Positions 4,624 to 30,007 of a stretch of 64,000 bases of DNA are shown in pieces. A model generated the notes under the pieces. The model saw nothing but the letters and a program-made list of their open reading frames with translations. It was not told the DNA's origin and did no database searches. The DNA is from an uncultured Oscillospiraceae bacterium (GTDB lineage Bacteria > Bacillota > Clostridia > Oscillospirales > JAAYXM01): positions 80 to 64,079 of the forward strand of contig CAKUEM010000003.1 of assembly GCA_934646115.1 (NCBI GenBank). The letters are read 5' to 3'. Both the position numbers and the translations under genes were made by a program. Every line of letters begins with the position of its first letter. Within the stretch, counting starts at the first letter, position 1.

Positions 4624-5219
4624 TTTATAAAGATATTTTAAATTTAAAAAAATCATTTCGCGCGTATGCGGCGCTGGTCGTTTTTTACGCGGCGCTTTCG
4701 CTATTTGAAGAGGCGGCGTCCGGCATGATGGGCGTGGCGATTGTGCTGAGTGCGATTTTGCCGATCACGGCAATCGCCTATGACGAACGTGCAAAGTGGG
4801 ATCGTTATGTGCTGACTATGCCGGTTTCGCGGCGAAACGTCGTGCTTGCAAAATATATGCTTGGGTTTTTGATGCTGATCCCCACGCTGCTGGTCTGCTT
4901 TGCGTTTCAGGTGGTCAGCCGCATGCCGCTGGAGGAAAACCTGCTGCTTTGCGCGGTATTTTGCGGGCTGGGCGTGCTTTTGCTGTCGCTCGTGCTGCCG
5001 ATTATTTATCGCTTCGGCGCAGAGCGAGGGCGCATTGCGATGATGGCGGTTTTGTTTGTGCCCACGGTGTGTATTGGGCTGCTTGCAAAAAGCGGCGTCA
5101 CTCTGCCAGAGCCGGATGCGCTTTTGCGCGTGTGGTATTGGCCGCCGATCGCGCTTATCGTTTTATGCGCGGTTTCGATGTTTCTTTCGGTTCGCATATA
5201 TCAGAAAAAGGAATTTTAA
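4611..5219 (+). CDS. ABC-2 type transporter permease
   Basis: About 6 predicted TM helices. It overlaps the ATPase gene by 13 nt, the typical third gene of YtrA-type operons. Confidence 0.7.
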   Translation: MWGLIYKDILNLKKSFRAYAALVVFYAALSLFEEAASGMMGVAIVLSAILPITAIAYDERAKWDRYVLTMPVSRRNVVLAKYMLGFLMLIPTLLVCFAFQVVSRMPLEENLLLCAVFCGLGVLLLSLVLPIIYRFGAERGRIAMMAVLFVPTVCIGLLAKSGVTLPEPDALLRVWYWPPIALIVLCAVSMFLSVRIYQKKEF

Positions 5220-5253: not shown

Positions 5254-6283
5254 GCGTTTTGAGAATTTTTTTTGCCGTATGCTTTGCGTGAATGAGTGCA
5301 CGGCAGGTTTTATGCCGGGCGAGGATGCGGTCATAGAACGGAACATGCGTGGCGCGCAGCGGCATATGCGAAAGATAGCGCGAGAACGGCGCATCATGGG
5401 CAAACGCGCAGATCGCAGAGTAAATTTCATCGTATTCCGCGCGGCTTTGAATTTGCGTAAAATCAAAAATTTCAAGCAGCTCGCGCAGTGTAAAATATGC
5501 TTTTTCGCAGCAAATTACGCGAGGCAGGTCAGAAAACAGCGCGCAAAACTGCGCAAAAAACTTGCGGTATTCTTCGATTGAATGCATTGAGCGGGAATTC
5601 ATGGTAGATTCCGGATGCTGGCGATAAAAATAGCCGAGCGAATCCATGACCGCAATTTTTTCGGCGCGCAGCAAAAATTCTGCCGTGAAGAGTTGATCCT
5701 CGGAAATATGGATATCCTCGGCAAAGCGCAGGCCGGAAAGCGCGCTTTTGCGATAAAGCTTCGCCCAAATTTCGGGAATGAGCCCCTTCAGGATGATAGG
5801 AGCGGTTTTCCAGGCGAAGCACGCGCGGATCACGGCGACTTTTTGCGCCGCATCGGTCATATCATATTCTGTTACAGAACCGTCTCCGCGCAGCAGGTTG
5901 GTTTTTAATTCATCGCCGTGCAAATCGACCCAACGGATTTTTGACCATACGCCGTCTATACCGGGCGCGATGCAGCGCGCGGCATCGGCTAATAATGTGG
6001 GTGCGATAAAATCATCAGAATCGATAAAAGTGACCCAGTCGCCTTTCGCGTGCGCAAGCCCGGTGTTCCGCGCGGCAGACACGCCTGCATTCTCCTGATG
6101 GATTAGGCGGATGTCGCCGCGCTCTGCATATTGTGAAAGCAGGGCGCACGTTGCGGCATGGGTGCTTCCATCATCAACAACGAGCGTTTCGAAATCACGA
6201 AAGGTCTGCGCGGCAATGCTTGTGAGGCAATGCTCTAAATAAATCGGATCGGTATTATAAACCGGAATAATCACAGTAATCAT
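5234..6283 (-). CDS. Glycosyltransferase family 2
   Basis: N-terminus VIIPVYNTDPIYLEHCLTSIAAQTFRDFETLVVDDGS and a later DSDD motif. Confidence 0.85.
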   Translation of the reverse strand: MITVIIPVYNTDPIYLEHCLTSIAAQTFRDFETLVVDDGSTHAATCALLSQYAERGDIRLIHQENAGVSAARNTGLAHAKGDWVTFIDSDDFIAPTLLADAARCIAPGIDGVWSKIRWVDLHGDELKTNLLRGDGSVTEYDMTDAAQKVAVIRACFAWKTAPIILKGLIPEIWAKLYRKSALSGLRFAEDIHISEDQLFTAEFLLRAEKIAVMDSLGYFYRQHPESTMNSRSMHSIEEYRKFFAQFCALFSDLPRVICCEKAYFTLRELLEIFDFTQIQSRAEYDEIYSAICAFAHDAPFSRYLSHMPLRATHVPFYDRILARHKTCRALIHAKHTAKKILKTQKSSRS

Positions 6284-7302
6284 AGCGCTGTTTCCTTTTT
6301 AGAATGTTTGGTTCGAATTTGCCGGAGTGCATGCGACGGGTAGAAAAACACATTGAGATATGGGGTTTGCGCGGCGAGCTTTGCAATGAGAACGGGAAAC
6401 GCCAGCCCGCACAGGATCCCCGCCGACAGATGCAGCCAATAATTCGTTACGCTCACTTTTAAAAGACAGATCCGAATGGCGGAGGTAAATATCGTGTGCA
6501 GCAGATAGATCGGAAAGGAATATTTGCAGACAAACTGCAAAAATACGGCAATCGGCTTGCAGCGCGCGATCAGAGAAATCAGGCAAAGCGAGGCGAAAAT
6601 GCCGAGCAGCGTTGCCACGTCGTCCATGAGAAATATGTAATAACCATTCGTTAAGAAAAGGGCGGAGACGATCAGGATATGAAGCAAGATCGCGGCGATG
6701 CGCGCCGCCGCAGGCAGTTTTTGCACGGCGAGCGAGCGCAGGCACGTGCCAAGTCCGAATGCGAGCACGCAATGCATAGACGAATCTAAAAAACCCAGGT
6801 CAATATTTAAATATTTCAGCACGGTAAACACGGTAAACAGAACAGCCGTGATGGTGATATTATTAAAAAAGCGCGAAAGCAGCGCCCAAAACACAAAAAG
6901 CCAGAACAGCGAGAACAAAAACCAATATTGCGCCACCGGCTGACGCCAAAGCTGCAAAATATCAGAAAGCGAGGAGGCGGTATTGACCCCGGGCGTGAGC
7001 GAATTGATCGCGATATACACGGCGGAAAAGAAAAAATAAGGCAGACCGAGATTTAACAGCTTATTTCCGATAAAGCGGAGGCGGCTGCCTTTTGATGCCG
7101 CGTCGCCGGTCAGATGATAGACGTAGCCGGCAAGAAACATGAACAGATCGATATGAAAGCTCATGATAAATCGCTCTGAAAACGGCAGAAAAGCGGGAAG
7201 CGAAAGCCCGCAGGATATCAGCCCGAGCAACACGTGTCCCAGCAGAACGAGCAGGCACGCGTAGCCTTTTAATTGATCAACAAAAACGTCACGCTGCAAC
7301 AC
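6280..7302 (-). CDS. Membrane acyltransferase (acyltransferase_3 family, O-acetylase type)
   Basis: About 10 TM helices. N-terminal VDQLKGYACLLVLLGH resembles the AT3 signature. 4-nt overlap with the downstream GT2. Confidence 0.75.
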   Translation of the reverse strand: MLQRDVFVDQLKGYACLLVLLGHVLLGLISCGLSLPAFLPFSERFIMSFHIDLFMFLAGYVYHLTGDAASKGSRLRFIGNKLLNLGLPYFFFSAVYIAINSLTPGVNTASSLSDILQLWRQPVAQYWFLFSLFWLFVFWALLSRFFNNITITAVLFTVFTVLKYLNIDLGFLDSSMHCVLAFGLGTCLRSLAVQKLPAAARIAAILLHILIVSALFLTNGYYIFLMDDVATLLGIFASLCLISLIARCKPIAVFLQFVCKYSFPIYLLHTIFTSAIRICLLKVSVTNYWLHLSAGILCGLAFPVLIAKLAAQTPYLNVFFYPSHALRQIRTKHSKKETAL

Positions 7303-26677: not shown

Positions 26678-28039
26678 ATGAGAACAGCACAGGATTTTAC
26701 GAAGGGAAAAATTTTATCGCCGCTTATCGGCTTTGCATTGCCGATTTTGTTTGCGGTTTTCCTGCAGACGATGTATGGCGCGGTCGATCTGCTGATCGTG
26801 GGGCAATTCTCCACGGTCGCAGAGGTTTCGGCGGTTTCGACCGGGAGCTGGATCATGACGCTTGTCACCTCGGCGATCACCGGGCTTGCAATGGGCACCA
26901 CGATCCTGCTCGGGCGCAAGATCGGCGAGGGGCGCGCGGAAGAGGGAGGACGCGTGATCGGCGCGTCGATCGTTCTGTTTGCCGTGGTGGGCGCGGTGAT
27001 CACGGTGCTGGCGCTTGTGTTTGCGCCGCAGCTCGCGCTGGCCATGCATGCGCCGAAGGAGGCGTTTTCCGCCACGGTTGCTTATATCCGAATTTGCGCG
27101 GCGGGAACGGTGTTTATCATCGGCTATAACGTGCTGGGCAGCATTTTCCGCGGCATGGGCAACGCCCGCCTGCCGCTGATTTCGGTTGCGATCGCGTGTG
27201 TGTTCAACATTGTGGGCGATCTGCTCCTGGTCGCCGTTATTCCGCTGGGCGCGGCGGGCGCGGCGATCGCAACGGTTGCGGCGCAGGCGGCGAGCGTTTT
27301 GATCTCAATGCTCATTATTCGGCGGCAGCGGCTGCCCTTTGTATTCAACCGGCGCGCGCTGCGCGCAGACGGCGTGTTCATCCGCGAAACGGTGCGGCTG
27401 GGGCTGCCGATTGCACTGCAGGATGTTTTGGTCGGGATCTCGTTTCTTGTTATCACGGCGATCGCCAATTCGATCGGGCTGATCGAATCGGCTGGCGTGG
27501 GGATCGCGGAAAAGGTTTGCGGGTTTGTGCTGCTTGTTCCGTCTGCCTACATGCAGGCGATGAGCGCGTTTGTCGCGCAGAATATGGGCGCGGCGCGGCT
27601 GGACCGGGCGAAGCGCGCGCTTTTTTATGCGATCGGAACATCGCTTGCGGTCGGGCTGTTTTTGTCTTATTTCACGTTTTTCCACGGTGATCTGCTCGCC
27701 GGGATCTTTGCGCATGAAGCGGCGGTTTTGGCGGCTGCGGCGGAATATTTAAAGGCGTATGCGATCGATTGCCTGCTTGTTTCGTTCCTGTTCTGCTTCA
27801 TCGGCTATTTTAATGGGCGTGGAAATACCACATTTGTGATGGCGCAGGGGATCATCGGCGCGTTTTGCGTTCGCATCCCGGTTTCGTTTGCAATGAGCCG
27901 GGCGACGCCGGTCTCTCTGTTTCATTTAGGGCTTGCGACCCCGTGCTCCACAGTGGTGCAGATTCTGCTGTGTCTGGCGTTCTTTGCGCGGATGGAGAGG
28001 AAGGACCGCACCGCGCTGCAAACGCAGCGGAAATCATAA
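26678..28039 (+). CDS. MATE family efflux transporter
   Basis: 12 TM helices. N-terminus FTKGKILSPLIGFALPILFAVFLQTMYGAVDLLIVGQ is typical of MATE (NorM/DinF-like) proteins. Confidence 0.9.
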   Translation: MRTAQDFTKGKILSPLIGFALPILFAVFLQTMYGAVDLLIVGQFSTVAEVSAVSTGSWIMTLVTSAITGLAMGTTILLGRKIGEGRAEEGGRVIGASIVLFAVVGAVITVLALVFAPQLALAMHAPKEAFSATVAYIRICAAGTVFIIGYNVLGSIFRGMGNARLPLISVAIACVFNIVGDLLLVAVIPLGAAGAAIATVAAQAASVLISMLIIRRQRLPFVFNRRALRADGVFIRETVRLGLPIALQDVLVGISFLVITAIANSIGLIESAGVGIAEKVCGFVLLVPSAYMQAMSAFVAQNMGAARLDRAKRALFYAIGTSLAVGLFLSYFTFFHGDLLAGIFAHEAAVLAAAAEYLKAYAIDCLLVSFLFCFIGYFNGRGNTTFVMAQGIIGAFCVRIPVSFAMSRATPVSLFHLGLATPCSTVVQILLCLAFFARMERKDRTALQTQRKS

Positions 28040-28116
28040 AAAAGGGCATATTGCAGACCGTCCTGCACGTGCGGGCAGTAGGAAAACAGGGGTCTGAGCA
28101 GGCGTGTTTAGCTTCA

Positions 28117-28159
28117 ACCGGAGCGGCGCAGCGTTAGCGATGCCGCTCCGGTTTTTTTT
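28117..28159 (+). terminator. Rho-independent terminator of the MATE gene
   Basis: ACCGGAGCGGC (28117-28127) pairs with GCCGCTCCGGT (28142-28152), followed by T8. Confidence 0.85.
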
Positions 28160-28224
28160 ATCCGGATGCGCTTGCGCTTATAGGAGTAAATATATCTGTT
28201 AATTAAGTCGTTTGCCTCTTTCAT

Positions 28225-28285
28225 TGAACAGCACCCCATCTATTAGACAAGTATGAATAATGTCTAATAGATGGGGTGCTGTTCA
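28225..28285. repeat. Perfect 25-bp inverted repeat with an 11-nt spacer
   Basis: TGAACAGCACCCCATCTATTAGACA (28225-28249), AGTATGAATAA, then TGTCTAATAGATGGGGTGCTGTTCA (28261-28285). Zero mismatches. Confidence 0.95.
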
Positions 28286-28295
28286 AATTTATTTC

Positions 28296-28318
28296 CCTAC
28301 ATAGGGGGCGTTTTGTCT
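28296..28318. repeat. Direct repeat copy 1 (CATAGGGGG-containing 23-mer)
   Basis: CCTACATAGGGGGCGTTTTGTCT matches 28794-28816 at 20 of 23 positions. Confidence 0.85.
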
Positions 28319-28382
28319 ATTGTCCGTTTTTACTGGTTCGGTTCAAAAACAGGGACGCTCTCATCAACGATTGCTTCTGTGG

Positions 28383-28428
28383 GGCTCCGCGGTCTCCCGT
28401 ATCGCGTTTTAACCGAGGAGCCTTTTTT
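28383..28428 (+). terminator. Plus-strand intrinsic terminator convergent with the small minus-strand ORF
   Basis: GGCTCCGCGG (28383-28392) pairs with CCGAGGAGCC (28413-28422) with one mismatch, followed by T6 (28423-28428). No plus-strand CDS precedes it. Confidence 0.6.
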
Positions 28429-28440
28429 ACCCTCTGAAAA

Positions 28441-28821
28441 TCAGGCTCGAATATGGGCTTTCTGGAGTGCTTTAATCTCAGGCTCATAGACTTCGATAAG
28501 CTCGTCGCCGTTCTGAATCAGGATAGAATCCTCTTGACGTTCATCTTCGCCGGCGTCTTCCGCGTCCAAGCAATCAATCCACTTACCACGCACGGTCTTA
28601 CCAGTATACTCGCTTCTGCAAATGCCGATAGTCTCGGTATGAGCGAATCGTTCTTTGTGATTCAAGTCTCCGGCGTTTGTCTTAAAGAACTGACCTTTGC
28701 CGGGATGCCGGTCATAGAGCGGGAGCGGATACCGCTTCCGGGTGCTCTCCTGTGCATTTTTGCCCATAACAATACCCCCTATGTAGTTATCATCCTGCAT
28801 AGGGGGCTGTTTGTCTGTCAT
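28441..28821 (-). CDS. Hypothetical small protein (108 or 126 aa), no family recognised
   Basis: Only ORF in a low-GC spacer. Hydrophilic with an acidic patch (DAEDAGEDERQED). A second in-frame ATG at 28767 has a GGGGG Shine-Dalgarno 7 nt upstream; the first ATG at 28821 has none. Confidence 0.45.
   Translation of the reverse strand: MTDKQPPMQDDNYIGGIVMGKNAQESTRKRYPLPLYDRHPGKGQFFKTNAGDLNHKERFAHTETIGICRSEYTGKTVRGKWIDCLDAEDAGEDERQEDSILIQNGDELIEVYEPEIKALQKAHIRA
28775..28806 (-). promoter_or_regulatory. Leader hairpin sequestering the Shine-Dalgarno of the small ORF
   Basis: On the minus strand, CCCCCTATG, a 14-nt loop, then CATAGGGGG. The 3' arm supplies the GGGGG SD for the ATG at 28767. Confidence 0.55.
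28794..28816. repeat. Direct repeat copy 2
   Basis: CCTGCATAGGGGGCTGTTTGTCT, 498 bp from copy 1. Confidence 0.85.
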
Positions 28822-28852
28822 CCTGTTGGTTTACAAATCTCCACAGTTCATT

Positions 28853-28864
28853 TTTGATATCAAA
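28853..28864. promoter_or_regulatory. 12-bp perfect palindrome TTTGATATCAAA
   Basis: Self-complementary. It lies immediately after the stop of the wecA-like gene and upstream of the small ORF. Operator-like, function unknown. Confidence 0.3.
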
Positions 28865-30007
28865 TCATTCTTTGGGCGCATTGTCCGTGTTTTCAGGCGC
28901 GTCGTCTGTCTCCTCCGGCGCAGGGGATGCGCTCTCTGCCGGGGAATCCTGCTGCTTATTGCTGGTGGACAGATCCATAAACACCTTTGCGCCGATCACG
29001 ATCGCGAGGATCACGGCGAGTACGAAAAACAACGCCTTGATCTCACCACTTGAGGTAAGCACCACGGCGGAGAGACCGAGCAGCCCGCTCATTAAATACA
29101 GGATCGTAACAGATTGCTTCTGATTAAAGCCCATGTCGATCAGCCGGTGATGCACATGCCCGCGGTCGGCGCTCATGGGGTTTTGCCCATGCAGCACGCG
29201 CCGCCCGATGGCAAACATCGTGTCAAAAATCGGAAGCCCCAAAATCAAGAACGGCACGGCGAATGAGACGACCGCATAAAATTTAAATAGCCCCTGGATC
29301 GACACGGTGGCAAGAATGAAGCCCAGAAATGTTGACCCGGTATCGCCCATGAAAATTTTCGCCGGGTTGAGGTTGTAGGGCATAAAGCCGATGCAAGCGC
29401 CGGCAAGCGCCGCCATGAGCAGCGCGATCGTATGCTCCGGCACAATGATCGCGATCACGAGCAGCGAAAACGACGCGATCGACGACACGCCGACCGCAAG
29501 CCCATCCAGCCCGTCGATCAAGTTGACCGCGTTTGTGATCGCAACGATCCAGAGCACGGTGAGCGGAATGGACCAGATGCCCAGGTCGATATACGGGTTT
29601 TCGCTGAAAATATTCGGGTTGGAGAACCGGGTGATGCGTATCCCATGATACACCACGATCAGCGCGGCGAGGATCTGCACCGCGAATTTTAAAAGCGCGG
29701 GCAGCGGCACGATATCGTCCACAATGCCGAGAATCACGATCACGACCGCGCCGAGCAGAATGCCCTGCAGCTGCGGCGTCATATCGACAAACAGCAGCAC
29801 GGAGAACAAAAAGCCCAGGAAGATCGCAAGACCGCCCATGCGCGGGATCGGAACTTTATGCATCCGGCGCGAATCCTTCGGCACATCGATTGCGCCGACC
29901 TTATGCGCTAAAATTTTAACAAGCGGCGTTGCCGCAAAGGCGATTGCCGCGGCGCAGACAAACGCCGCCAGCGCCCTTAAAACAAATTTTACTTCAATCG
30001 TCTGCAT
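28865..30007 (-). CDS. MraY/WecA-family UDP-HexNAc:undecaprenyl-phosphate HexNAc-1-phosphate transferase (GT4 polyprenyl-phosphate family)
   Basis: About 10 TM helices. Motifs VNLIDGLDGLAVG, MGDTGSTFLGF and HVHHRLI. AGGAGG RBS. Low-complexity acidic C-terminal tail. Confidence 0.85.
   Translation of the reverse strand: MQTIEVKFVLRALAAFVCAAAIAFAATPLVKILAHKVGAIDVPKDSRRMHKVPIPRMGGLAIFLGFLFSVLLFVDMTPQLQGILLGAVVIVILGIVDDIVPLPALLKFAVQILAALIVVYHGIRITRFSNPNIFSENPYIDLGIWSIPLTVLWIVAITNAVNLIDGLDGLAVGVSSIASFSLLVIAIIVPEHTIALLMAALAGACIGFMPYNLNPAKIFMGDTGSTFLGFILATVSIQGLFKFYAVVSFAVPFLILGLPIFDTMFAIGRRVLHGQNPMSADRGHVHHRLIDMGFNQKQSVTILYLMSGLLGLSAVVLTSSGEIKALFFVLAVILAIVIGAKVFMDLSTSNKQQDSPAESASPAPEETDDAPENTDNAPKE

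Follow-up and report, generated by a model that had tools for sequence, protein, structure and literature searches.

In an uncultured Oscillospiraceae bacterium, the converging MATE and GT4 genes are separated by 825 bp that are very probably a patchwork of dead mobile DNA, in which two IS3-family left ends lie around a chimera that joins a transposase start to pieces of a phage toxin gene and of the small gene next to it. We regard it with high confidence as ordinary debris rather than as a new cassette or regulatory module. The neat repeat-ORF-repeat geometry is in all likelihood a false lead that can now be cleared, as it stems from two IS3 left ends, each standing alone, on either side of a piece of phage toxin/immunity DNA. 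Throughout, the window denotes the whole stretch of 64,000 nt that was analysed.

The spacer, its borders and its repeats

The MATE gene lies on the plus strand and ends at 28039, the GT4 glycosyltransferase gene lies on the minus strand and ends at 28865, and the flanks thus converge as described in the initial annotation. The neighbourhood comprises acyltransferase, MATE, GT4, TrpRS and aminotransferase genes, and no integrase or recombinase gene was found among the neighbours within about 5 kb of the repeats. The intrinsic terminator of the MATE gene (28116..28159, plus strand), a perfect 12-bp stem followed by a T run, is the chromosomal edge and lies outside the mobile debris. A terminator-like site was also looked for between GT4 and the co-directional 108-aa ORF, and none was found there. 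The low G+C content noted for the ORF region holds for 28100-28800 (0.43-0.50, vs. 0.54-0.66 in the flanking genes), and the proposed foreign, acquired origin is borne out, the material being derived from phage and IS. No other IS or phage DNA was found in the 64-kb window by blastn and tblastx.

The 23-nt direct repeats (28296-28318 and 28794-28816) are indeed identical at 20 of 23 positions, and a repeat search extends the pair to 37 nt with 76% identity at a spacing of 498 bp. An inverted third copy, annotated at 28775-28783, is present and longer than claimed: CCCCCTATGTAG (28775-28786) is complementary over all of its 12 nt to 28297-28308 and at 11 of 12 positions to 28795-28806, which lies only 8 nt away. 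The short core CATAGGGGGC is not unusual, with four matches in the window vs. 2.3 expected when one mismatch is allowed. The ORF exists on the minus strand at 28441-28767, with an alternative upstream ATG at 28821 located inside an IS end, but it is not the only ORF of the spacer as had been stated: an antisense ORF of 134 aa (28453-28857, plus strand) was the choice of the gene caller in an identical contig.

Left ends of an IS3-family group

A search for the repeat motif at other genomic loci, as had been suggested, was performed with the query AGACAAANNGCCCCCTATGYAGG. It returned 71 genome matches, located in MAGs of Clostridia, Oscillospiraceae and Lachnospiraceae and pointing to an IS3-family left end. 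Two thirds of them (47/71) lie no more than 150 nt from the end of the available sequence on the 3' side of the motif, mostly at contig ends, which is to be expected for a multicopy repeat at which assemblies break. In every match with enough upstream sequence, the motif is preceded by a near-identical end, most commonly TGAAC.GAACCAGTAAAAACGGACAAT. Downstream, where the sequence continues, mostly the second hairpin arm CTACATAGGGGG and an orfA start codon are found, followed by OrfA proteins of 87-109 aa with an HTH/leucine-zipper organization. In intact elements, the left end starts from the TGAAC terminus and the inverted repeat bound by the transposase, continues with AGACAAA-NN-GCCCCCTATGTAGG, a short loop and CTACATAGGGGG, and reaches the orfA ATG after a further 7-9 nt. 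This order, written as TGAAC…AGACAAA-NN-GCCCCCTATGTAGG-loop-CTACATAGGGGG-N7-9-ATG, can serve as a recognition rule for the left end of an IS3 group that is common in gut/rumen Clostridia and that accounts for many contig breaks in the MAGs of these bacteria.

Members of the IS3 family are characterized by orfA and orfB, a DDE/rve transposase, TG…CA ends and a target-site duplication of 3-4 bp. A full copy of the present group (L057:1-1265) measures 1265 bp and carries orfA and orfB between TGAAC…GTTCA ends. Its OrfB passes the cutoff of NF033516, the model for IS3 family transposases, with 301.9 bits vs. 160, and contains rve (5e-21), HTH_21 and rve_2/3 domains, which identifies it as a DDE transposase. 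orfA (90 aa) occupies frame 1, and the open frame of orfB is frame 0, i.e., the -1 frame, overlapping the end of orfA, which suggests a programmed orfA/orfB frameshift; no slippery heptamer was recognized. The terminal inverted repeats (TGAACAGGACCAG… on the left and …TGGTCCTGTTCA on the right) match at 20 of 30 positions, delimit the 1265 bp and show the TG…CA signature. A further copy (L053) has similar ends 1290 bp apart, and a short derivative of the same group consists of a left and a right end in only 104 bp (L027:7717-7820). The full copies examined begin at a contig end, so that their left flank is absent. When the full IS was compared to plasmids by blastn, only two partial, unannotated Subdoligranulum matches were found. 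We also considered that a phage had brought the IS along, a possibility without support: the motif has no match in viral contigs, so catalogued phages do not carry this IS as a rule.

An nhmmer profile built from 33 independent IS left ends has exactly two matches across the 64 kb, from 28345 to 28290 (E 1.2e-16) and from 28824 to 28767 (E 8.5e-13), which places the longer repeat sequences far above chance. Each of the two repeats belongs to an IS3-family copy of its own; it is the left end in both cases, and the ends lie in direct orientation to each other. Left end #2 (28290..28345, minus strand) corresponds to the first 56 nt of the element (TGAACCGAACCAGTAAAAACGGACAATAGACAAAACGCCCCCTATGTAGGGAAATA; model positions 1-56; 93% identity to positions 1-57 of L057 by blastn). 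It holds the left repeat (28296-28318), and its hairpin is reduced to the 5' arm. Left end #1 (28767..28850, minus strand) is more diverged (model positions 20-77; 87% identity to positions 28-80 of L057) and, besides the right repeat (28794-28816), has kept the whole hairpin together with the Shine-Dalgarno sequence and start codon of orfA, a layout shared with most other left ends where sequence continues. Its TGAAC terminus is probably located at 28850, 14 nt past the GT4 stop codon, and the IS-derived sequence probably runs on to about 28729. The first 19 positions and the ~13 orfA codons are too diverged for a rigorous assignment, their sole support being a K-R-Y-P resemblance to OrfA N-termini. 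A right end, an rve domain and orfA sequence past ~13 codons are all absent from the 64 kb, and no complete element is thus present. The window copies are remnants and not insertion sequences, and neither of them can move on its own since both the transposase gene and the right end are missing.

Next to left end #2 lies a perfect palindrome of 63 bp (28224..28286) with 26-bp arms and an 11-nt loop, folding with an MFE of -46 kcal/mol (z -11). Its arms start with TGAACAGC and resemble IS3-type ends, and it may be a bidirectional terminator or two ends paired in the manner of a MITE. A search of 27000-30000 against Rfam (E≤1) gave only spurious miRNA-type matches on this palindrome, far under the gathering scores, and its arm has no match in viral contigs.

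The hairpin of left end #1 (28775..28806, minus strand) is formed by CCCCCUAUGCAG and CUACAUAGGGGG, with 12-bp arms and an 8-nt loop. The 3' arm comprises the Shine-Dalgarno sequence (AGGGGG) of orfA, hence also that of the chimeric ORF, and on the plus strand the same hairpin followed by CTGTTTGTCT looks like a terminator. The predicted RNA structure has an MFE of -33.2 kcal/mol with a z-score of -4.2 in the window and of -5.8 in L057. Across 23 distinct left ends, each of the 13 base pairs is preserved without any covariation, the 5' arm being fixed by the search pattern. By analogy with IS200, IS10 and IS50, burying the orfA Shine-Dalgarno sequence in a 12-13-bp hairpin would keep transposase translation low, chiefly on transcripts reading in from outside, and we suggest such a regulatory role for the left-end hairpin. 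The perfect complementarity of the 3' repeat to the Shine-Dalgarno region had also brought a type I toxin-antitoxin system with a hok-like 5'/3' fold-back under consideration; it was rejected, both segments being arms of IS left ends and the product a chimera.

A chimeric ORF of phage and transposase fragments

The homologues of the ORF are 70-aa proteins encoded directly after proteins with Phage_Mu_F and Ntox50 domains, in phage modules with the order terminase, portal, MuF, scaffold, capsid and sheath. The source protein counts 457-467 aa and combines both domains, its gene being located between the portal and scaffold genes. This combination of MuF and a toxin domain within a head module is present in phage loci L001-L007, L167 and L168, and in all phage loci the 70-aa gene overlaps the MuF stop codon by 4 nt. 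Ntox50 is among the toxin domains listed for MuF proteins of temperate phages (Jamet et al., 2017, PMC5576092). It is a BECR-fold RNase domain with conserved His … HxVP residues, for which no immunity family has been listed (Zhang et al., 2012, PMC3482391). Based on its position, the 70-aa protein is presumably the immunity protein for Ntox50, making this Sm/Hfq-like family a candidate partner for a toxin domain to which the latter study gives none. The family matches phrog_1865, whose function category is unassigned, and has no sequence-level match in the PDB (profile search) or Pfam. The AF2 model of the intact protein (pLDDT 87) predicts an N-terminal helix followed by a five-stranded bent sheet.

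The ORF in the window (28441..28767, minus strand) is a pseudogene-like fusion in three parts. Its product begins with MGKNAQESTRKRYPLPLYDR; residues 1-13 stem from the IS orfA start, residues 14-57 are an Ntox50 fragment and residues 55-108 are the C-terminal part of the 70-aa protein. The first phage part (28597..28728, minus strand) is an internal Ntox50 piece equivalent to MuF residues 384-429 of 457 (78% aa identity, E 5e-23). The second part (28346..28605, minus strand) contains codons 19-70 of the 70-aa gene plus about 95 nt of downstream non-coding phage DNA and stops inside the phage terminator stem, with about 90.6% identity to L002 6055-6319. At the protein level it shares 94% identity with residues 19-69 of P0005 (E 3e-35). 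The DNA identity to phage amounts to 89-91% over positions 28720-28597 and 28605-28345 of the window, with a gap of 143 bp between both stretches. The microhomology ACTGGTAAG (28597-28605; ACYGGTAAG) is the site of the 143-bp deletion that fused the two parts in frame. In total, the phage scrap between the IS ends measures 383 bp; blastn of the whole spacer against GenBank phages (INPHARED) gave no match.

Neither half is complete. Against the Ntox50 model the chimera scores 15.2 bits (cutoff 22.2) and covers profile positions 31-79 only, and this sub-threshold match is the only one in Pfam, while NCBIfam gave none for the ORF. The histidine of the toxin motif SKHIRGG and the HIVP motif both fall outside the retained segment (384-429), and the Sm-like part lacks helix 3-8 and strand 12-17 of the AF2 model of the 70-aa protein. 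The product is most likely non-functional because both toxin His motifs (the N-terminal His region and the C-terminal HxVP) as well as the helix and first strand of the Sm-like protein are missing. Neither a MuF domain nor any further phage gene occurs in the window, which does not contain a MuF/immunity module. Any translation of the chimera would stem from GT4 read-through and be damped by the hairpin.

History of the locus and comparison with known systems

Related loci bear on how the two repeats came to the spacer. In three of them (L010, L012, and L013) the phage fragment is present and left end #2 is absent; instead, the phage sequence includes the initial ~74 nt of the scaffold gene and extends as far as the palindrome, which is kept in an imperfect form. 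The edge of the palindrome is thus abutted by the phage fragment in other strains and by left end #2 in the window. L010 has the same GT4-to-MATE neighbourhood and carries left end #1, while the contigs of L012 and L013 start inside the toxin gene and reach the MATE side only, so that the upstream repeat is not covered. These two loci contain a complete 72-aa gene beside the MATE gene. In L010 the toxin/immunity region has undergone a different deletion, at a ATGACCGG microhomology, which, combined with a 1-nt indel, again leaves these C-terminal 51-54 residues fused in frame. Left end #2 is confined to the configuration of the window (window, L085, and L011), where it stands in place of some 190 bp of phage DNA. 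Since left end #2 is missing from the three loci, the repeats came in by separate events and do not represent att sites.

A comparison with related genomes, as had been recommended, revealed neither an empty site nor an intact prophage at the locus, and the order of events can therefore only be inferred. A search for the exact MATE protein led to one equally spaced locus, identical wherever compared, and to a contig ending short of the spacer; no record exists of the exact GT4 protein, and among 80 metagenome loci with GT4 relatives (59-75% identity) MATE is never adjacent. In the sequence of events we propose, an old phage/IS insertion between MATE and GT4 would have come first. The 143-bp deletion at ACYGGTAAG would have joined the toxin piece and the piece of the 70-aa gene in frame, and an illegitimate junction would have placed the joined pieces behind the orfA start, creating the 108-aa ORF with its basic and then acidic composition. 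A second IS insertion followed by a deletion next to the IS would leave left end #2.

The initial annotation had read the spacer as an att-like, repeat-bounded cassette, i.e., a repeat-ORF-repeat unit inserted between the operons by a site-specific recombinase. Direct repeats 498 bp apart around foreign DNA of lower G+C content agree with this reading, as does L011, a metagenome contig of 512 bp with both ends inside the repeats. However, such breaks are the usual behaviour of assemblers at any repeat, the repeats are IS3 left ends with conserved flanking sequence of their own, and the motif is absent from viral contigs. As the repeats are not present or absent together (the insert occurs without the downstream repeat in L010, L012, and L013, and with the upstream one in L010) and a recombinase gene is lacking nearby, the cassette is contradicted and we consider it highly improbable. 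The other suggestion, a self-contained module of an unnamed type, is refuted because the ORF is a chimera of truncated known genes. Equally improbable is a still mobilisable, non-autonomous element (MITE-like or composite) that would carry the phage scrap and depend for its movement on the transposase of a full-length IS3 element elsewhere in the genome, acting in trans. The IS group does yield short derivatives such as the 104-bp copy, and the palindrome follows 3 nt after left end #2 with an outer arm ending in …GCTGTTCA, like an IS3 right end. Nevertheless, both ends around the ORF are left ends in direct orientation and form no transposable pair, end #1 is diverged with an uncertain terminus, and a second copy is absent from the 64-kb window. 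All copies that reach far enough adjoin the same MATE gene (in L085 and L010 also GT4) and show no sign of mobility.

A domesticated orphan immunity gene is likewise unlikely. Here, the C-terminal three quarters of the Sm-like protein would be made from the captured ribosome binding site and start codon of orfA, guarding against MuF::Ntox50 of related phages with the IS hairpin as a translational gate. The ORF is intact and in frame in the window, the L010 fusion is likewise in frame, and two independent fusions (window/L011 and L010) have thus kept the same C-terminal part, which could hint at selection for its expression. Also in line with this reading are the complete 72-aa gene beside MATE in L012 and L013, the high similarity of the kept part to the phage protein, and the fact that the toxin/immunity region is the phage part that was kept (elsewhere with the start of the scaffold gene), no other phage DNA being present in the window. 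Yet, two in-frame outcomes would arise by chance in about 1/9 of cases, and protein-based searching favours open frames. In the chimera, the five-stranded Sm-like barrel is without its N-terminal helix and strand 1, the Shine-Dalgarno sequence is buried in a stable hairpin and the immunity role of the 70-aa family (phrog_1865) is only putative. Moreover, most private substitutions found in chromosomal copies change the amino acid (window: S>P and I>L; L010: two D>G; L011: D>N and E>K). The pN/pS of these copies (0.2-1.05) exceeds that of the phage copies (0-0.11), but with about 12 substitutions the difference does not prove relaxed constraint. The complete scenario, in which the truncated protein is a working orphan immunity against the MuF::Ntox50 RNase, expressed from a hijacked IS3 orfA start gated by the hairpin and re-created twice by in-frame deletions that killed the toxin part, we deem very unlikely. 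If true, Ntox50 would gain its first assigned immunity family in the intact 70-aa protein.

With respect to the IS3 family, the motif with about 30 nt on either side matches the left end of full copies of about 1.27 kb, while the window contains only two cut-down left ends (56 nt and about 60-120 nt) without transposase or right end. In the case of IS200, a stem-loop blocks 30S binding and a left-end terminator shields the element from outside transcription, both shown by experiment (PMC4513863). The likeness to IS200, IS10 and IS50 consists of a conserved left-end hairpin that includes the transposase Shine-Dalgarno sequence (AGGGGG here, AAGGGGGU in IS200) and of its terminator-like appearance. 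Yet, IS200 encodes an HUH transposase whereas the present IS belongs to the IS3 family with a DDE transposase, and a single hairpin would have to serve both purposes. That an IS3-type left end has a hairpin which is so strongly conserved and buries the Shine-Dalgarno sequence may interest specialists.

The AF2 model of the 70-aa protein superposes on Hfq with a TM-score of about 0.65-0.70, suggesting an Hfq/Sm fold, with Foldseek E-values of 0.02-0.05, a sequence identity of 12-19% and an acidic loop (DAEDAGEDERQED) that has no counterpart in Hfq. Compared to MuF toxins, the window keeps 46 mid-domain toxin residues, without a MuF domain and fused to the next gene. The orphan toxin/immunity modules of CdiA-CT/CdiI and Rhs systems similarly consist of a truncated C-terminal toxin piece and a small neighbour gene apart from the full-length toxin gene. 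However, the fragment in the window is not located downstream of a full-length toxin and shares no recombination sequence with a parent toxin. Both of its halves are truncated and fused, and its flanking repeats are IS ends instead of repeats of a toxin pre-domain.

The composite spacer and its phage-derived ORF

The spacer between the MatE (MATE) efflux gene (+ strand, ending at 28039) and the family-4 glycosyltransferase (GT4) gene (- strand, ending at 28865) holds, as the initial annotation had described, the direct repeats CCTACATAGGGGGCGTTTTGTCT (28296-28318) and CCTGCATAGGGGGCTGTTTGTCT (28794-28816), which are identical at 20 of 23 positions and extend in similarity to 37 nt at 76% identity. 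The inverted third copy is also present as the 12-nt CCCCCTATGTAG (28775-28786), whose complement is perfect to 28297-28308 and matches 11/12 positions of 28795-28806, 8 nt off. The minus-strand ORF (28441-28767, 108 aa; 126 aa if started at the 28821 ATG) is confirmed downstream of the GT4 gene and co-directional with it, and the G+C content of the spacer is indeed low (0.43-0.50 vs 0.54-0.66 in the flanks). In the related contig L085, the public gene call (4776-5180, corresponding to window 28453-28857, + strand) is an antisense 134-aa ORF instead of the 108-aa ORF, so the coding signals of the spacer are ambiguous to gene finders.

Among 5.8 billion proteins, only 25 relatives of the ORF were found, nearly all of about 70 aa and matching the C-terminal half of the query alone; one is a 141-aa protein with an Ntox50 domain. 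The phage context was read from nine contigs encoding four relatives of ~70-98 aa, and all nine carry a head module composed of terminase, SPP1-type portal, MuF-Ntox50, the 70-aa gene, scaffold, capsid, tail terminator and sheath. The MuF minor head protein (457-467 aa) combines Phage_Mu_F with a C-terminal Ntox50 domain, and the 70-aa gene overlaps its stop. At the DNA level, window 28720-28597 corresponds to 5788-5911 of phage locus L002 (89%) and window 28605-28345 to 6055-6319 (91%); the 143 bp of phage DNA between both segments are absent, and the segments share the 9-nt microhomology ACYGGTAAG. In the translated sequence, ORF residues 14-59 align with MuF residues 384-429 (78%, E 5e-23), and ORF residues 55-105 with positions 19-69 of the 70-aa protein (94%, E 3e-35). 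By these DNA and protein matches, the ORF joins an internal part of the toxin domain to a copy of the following phage gene that lacks its 5' end.

Ntox50, in which His…HxVP residues are conserved, is predicted to be an RNase of the BECR fold (PMC3482391); it is also a known cargo of temperate-phage MuF polymorphic toxins (PMC5576092). The C-terminus of the phage toxin reads …SKHIRGG…GWHIVPARPQKGAAK, and both of its histidine motifs fall outside the piece retained in the window; as a MuF::Ntox50 polymorphic toxin module, the window copy is incomplete by every test applied. The intact 70-aa protein (P0005, L002:6001-6213; also in L001-L007, L167 and L168) solely matches phrog_1865, of unknown function. 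Its model, of high confidence (pLDDT 87), has a helix and a sheet of five strands and is similar to Hfq/Sm proteins (TM about 0.65-0.70, Foldseek E 0.02-0.05); an extended acidic loop, DAEDAGEDERQED, is also present. The helix and first strand of this fold are missing from the chimera.

The repeats as IS3-family left ends

Phage homology ends at 28345 and at about 28728, so both repeats lie just outside the phage part. A scan for AGACAAANNGCCCCCTATGYAGG (the repeat on the ORF strand) in one genome per species (GTDB) gave 71 matches. Almost all come from MAGs of Clostridia, among them Oscillospiraceae and Lachnospiraceae, and a single MAG frequently has many. In 47 of the 71, the available DNA ends no more than 150 nt beyond the motif on its 3' side, as is typical of a multicopy element at which short-read assemblies break. 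Every match with enough upstream DNA has a near-identical terminal sequence 5' of the motif (most commonly TGAAC.GAACCAGTAAAAACGGACAAT). On the 3' side, most matches with continuing sequence show a short loop rich in A, then CTACATAGGGGG and, 7-9 nt further on, an ATG. This ATG is the start of a protein of 87-109 aa that combines a helix-turn-helix with a leucine-zipper-like tail (…ENKRLKMENELLRDFL…). The complete copy L057:1-1265 has TGAAC…GTTCA termini, orfA, and orfB in the -1 frame; its OrfB scores 301.9 bits against the NCBIfam "IS3 family transposase" (cutoff 160) and contains rve and HTH_21 domains. Membership in the IS3 family was tested on this full copy, while the window copies fail as complete elements.

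When the 64-kb window is searched with a profile HMM of 33 distinct left ends, just two regions score as significant: 28345→28290 (left end #2; E 1.2e-16, model positions 1-56, deviating very little from the consensus) and 28824→28767 (left end #1; E 8.5e-13, model positions 20-77), the latter reaching the ATG of the ORF. Judged from these matches, the two repeats correspond to one and the same segment in two IS3-family left ends that point in the same direction. What had been seen as a third, inverted copy is the hairpin's second arm, which also serves as the orfA Shine-Dalgarno sequence, and the start codon of the ORF is that of orfA. The first 13 or so codons probably also derive from orfA (…KRYP…; cf. 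MAGKKGMKKYPEG, MSGKEGMKHYPEQ).

Read on the ORF strand, the GT4 stop (28865) is followed after 14 nt by the diverged left end #1 (28850/28824→28767) with hairpin, Shine-Dalgarno sequence and ATG, the ~13 probable orfA codons (to about 28729), the Ntox50 fragment (28728→28597), the truncated Sm-like gene with phage non-coding DNA (28605→28346, terminating within the phage terminator), the first 56 nt only of left end #2 (28345→28290), a perfect palindrome (28286→28224) and the MATE terminator (28159→28116). No further phage or IS DNA was found in the 64-kb window.

In the 63-bp palindrome beside the left repeat, two arms of 26 bp enclose a loop of 11 nt (MFE -46 kcal/mol, z -11). The arms start with TGAACAGC, resembling IS3-type termini, and are imperfect elsewhere (23/26 in L010, L012 and L013; 25/26 in L085); the edge of the palindrome is abutted by the phage fragment in other strains or by left end #2 in the window. 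It is absent from the viral contigs scanned, and may represent a bidirectional terminator or else a minimal MITE with its two ends joined back to back.

Derivatives of the same IS group occur elsewhere. L027:7717-7820 is a 104-bp MITE-like derivative of ~50 nt left end and ~54 nt right end (TGAACAGCTCC…GGGCCGGTTCA). In its MAG, CAMFAL01, about a dozen contigs end few bases past the motif, all continuing …TATGTAGGACA, which suggests a high copy number. Solo left ends in several other genomes (L048, L056, L059, L061, L070, L071) have the full hairpin followed by unrelated sequence and no orfA, with recurring breakpoints just 3' of the hairpin.

Related strains and the status of the chimera

The window configuration recurs in L085 (74-kb contig, identical MATE protein), with identical spacing and identical sequence over the compared parts, and, by alignment, in L011 (512-bp contig ending within the repeats). 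In the case of L010, the synteny aminotransferase-TrpRS-GT4…MATE-acyltransferase and left end #1 are the same as in the window. Its toxin/immunity deletion differs, being larger, located at ATGACCGG microhomology and accompanied by a 1-nt indel in the orfA-derived codons. Left end #2 is missing, and phage DNA extends past the terminator and 74 nt into the scaffold gene, where it meets the palindrome. The 72-aa ORF of L010 (L010:6001-6219) opens at the IS start codon and runs on into the last 51 residues of the Sm-like protein, which the window ORF shares. L012 and L013, contigs beginning inside the toxin gene, have a complete 72-aa gene and the same 3' phage extension up to the palindrome. From this sequence comparison, the phage scrap and left end #1 are the older parts, and the internal deletions arose independently of one another through microhomology. 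Left end #2 would be a later IS insertion specific to the window configuration (window, L085, L011), and a subsequent deletion would have taken the rest of that IS with ~190 bp of phage DNA.

The comparison with L010, L012 and L013 contradicts the earlier proposal of a cassette with att-like repeats: the repeats were not made by one insertion, and att sites or target duplications are therefore excluded. The search of relatives found no empty site, and in more distant GT4 relatives MATE is never neighbouring. The window IS pieces are relics: they have neither transposase nor right end, hence nothing can transpose. The chimera, in turn, could be translated solely from GT4 read-through RNA, via a sequestered Shine-Dalgarno sequence. 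It lacks the toxin catalytic motifs and two structural elements of the Sm-like protein, and the chromosomal copies show, in counts too small to be decisive, 7 non-synonymous vs 3 synonymous private substitutions and a pN/pS of 0.2-1.05 vs 0-0.11 in phage copies. For these reasons, the chimeric ORF is most likely non-functional debris. A surviving role in orphan immunity retains a small probability, because two independent deletions kept the same C-terminal part in frame; the in-frame ORF of L010 may be a chance outcome (about 1 in 3 per event) or may hint weakly at selection.

The left-end hairpin and known systems

The feature is real, explained and ordinary, and all its parts are of known kinds: an IS3-family element, a MuF::Ntox50 phage toxin module and microhomology deletions. 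Possible novelty in detail leaves this verdict unchanged. Zhang et al. (PMC3482391) give no immunity family for Ntox50, and the position of the 70-aa Sm-like protein makes it a candidate immunity partner. This IS group, with its conserved hairpin that buries the Shine-Dalgarno sequence in the predicted structure, may be uncatalogued.

The hairpin spans 12-13 bp (window leader -33 kcal/mol, z -4.2; L057 z -5.8), and L059 has a longer stem of 19 perfect pairs (z -10). Across 23 distinct left ends all 13 pairs persist, without covariation, since the sequence hardly varies and the search pattern had fixed one arm. On the opposite strand, hairpin and T-rich tail score terminator-like. Both repeat copies (+ strand, 28775-28816 and 28293-28318) score in this way as intrinsic-terminator-like sites, with a hairpin or half-hairpin followed by CTGTTTGTCT or CGTTTTGTCT, and the TTTGTCT of the motif first reported is this T-rich tail. 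Within the IS, such a site would end antisense transcripts exiting the left end.

In a live IS, the repeated segment would form part of the terminal inverted-repeat region at the left and of the orfA 5' leader. Work on IS200 has shown that a stem-loop at the left end prevents 30S binding, and a terminator in this end stops impinging transcription (PMC4513863). Similar to IS200, the hairpin described here is predicted to sequester the Shine-Dalgarno sequence of the transposase gene, and by this analogy we infer that it would damp transposase translation and insulate the IS3-type element from outside transcription.
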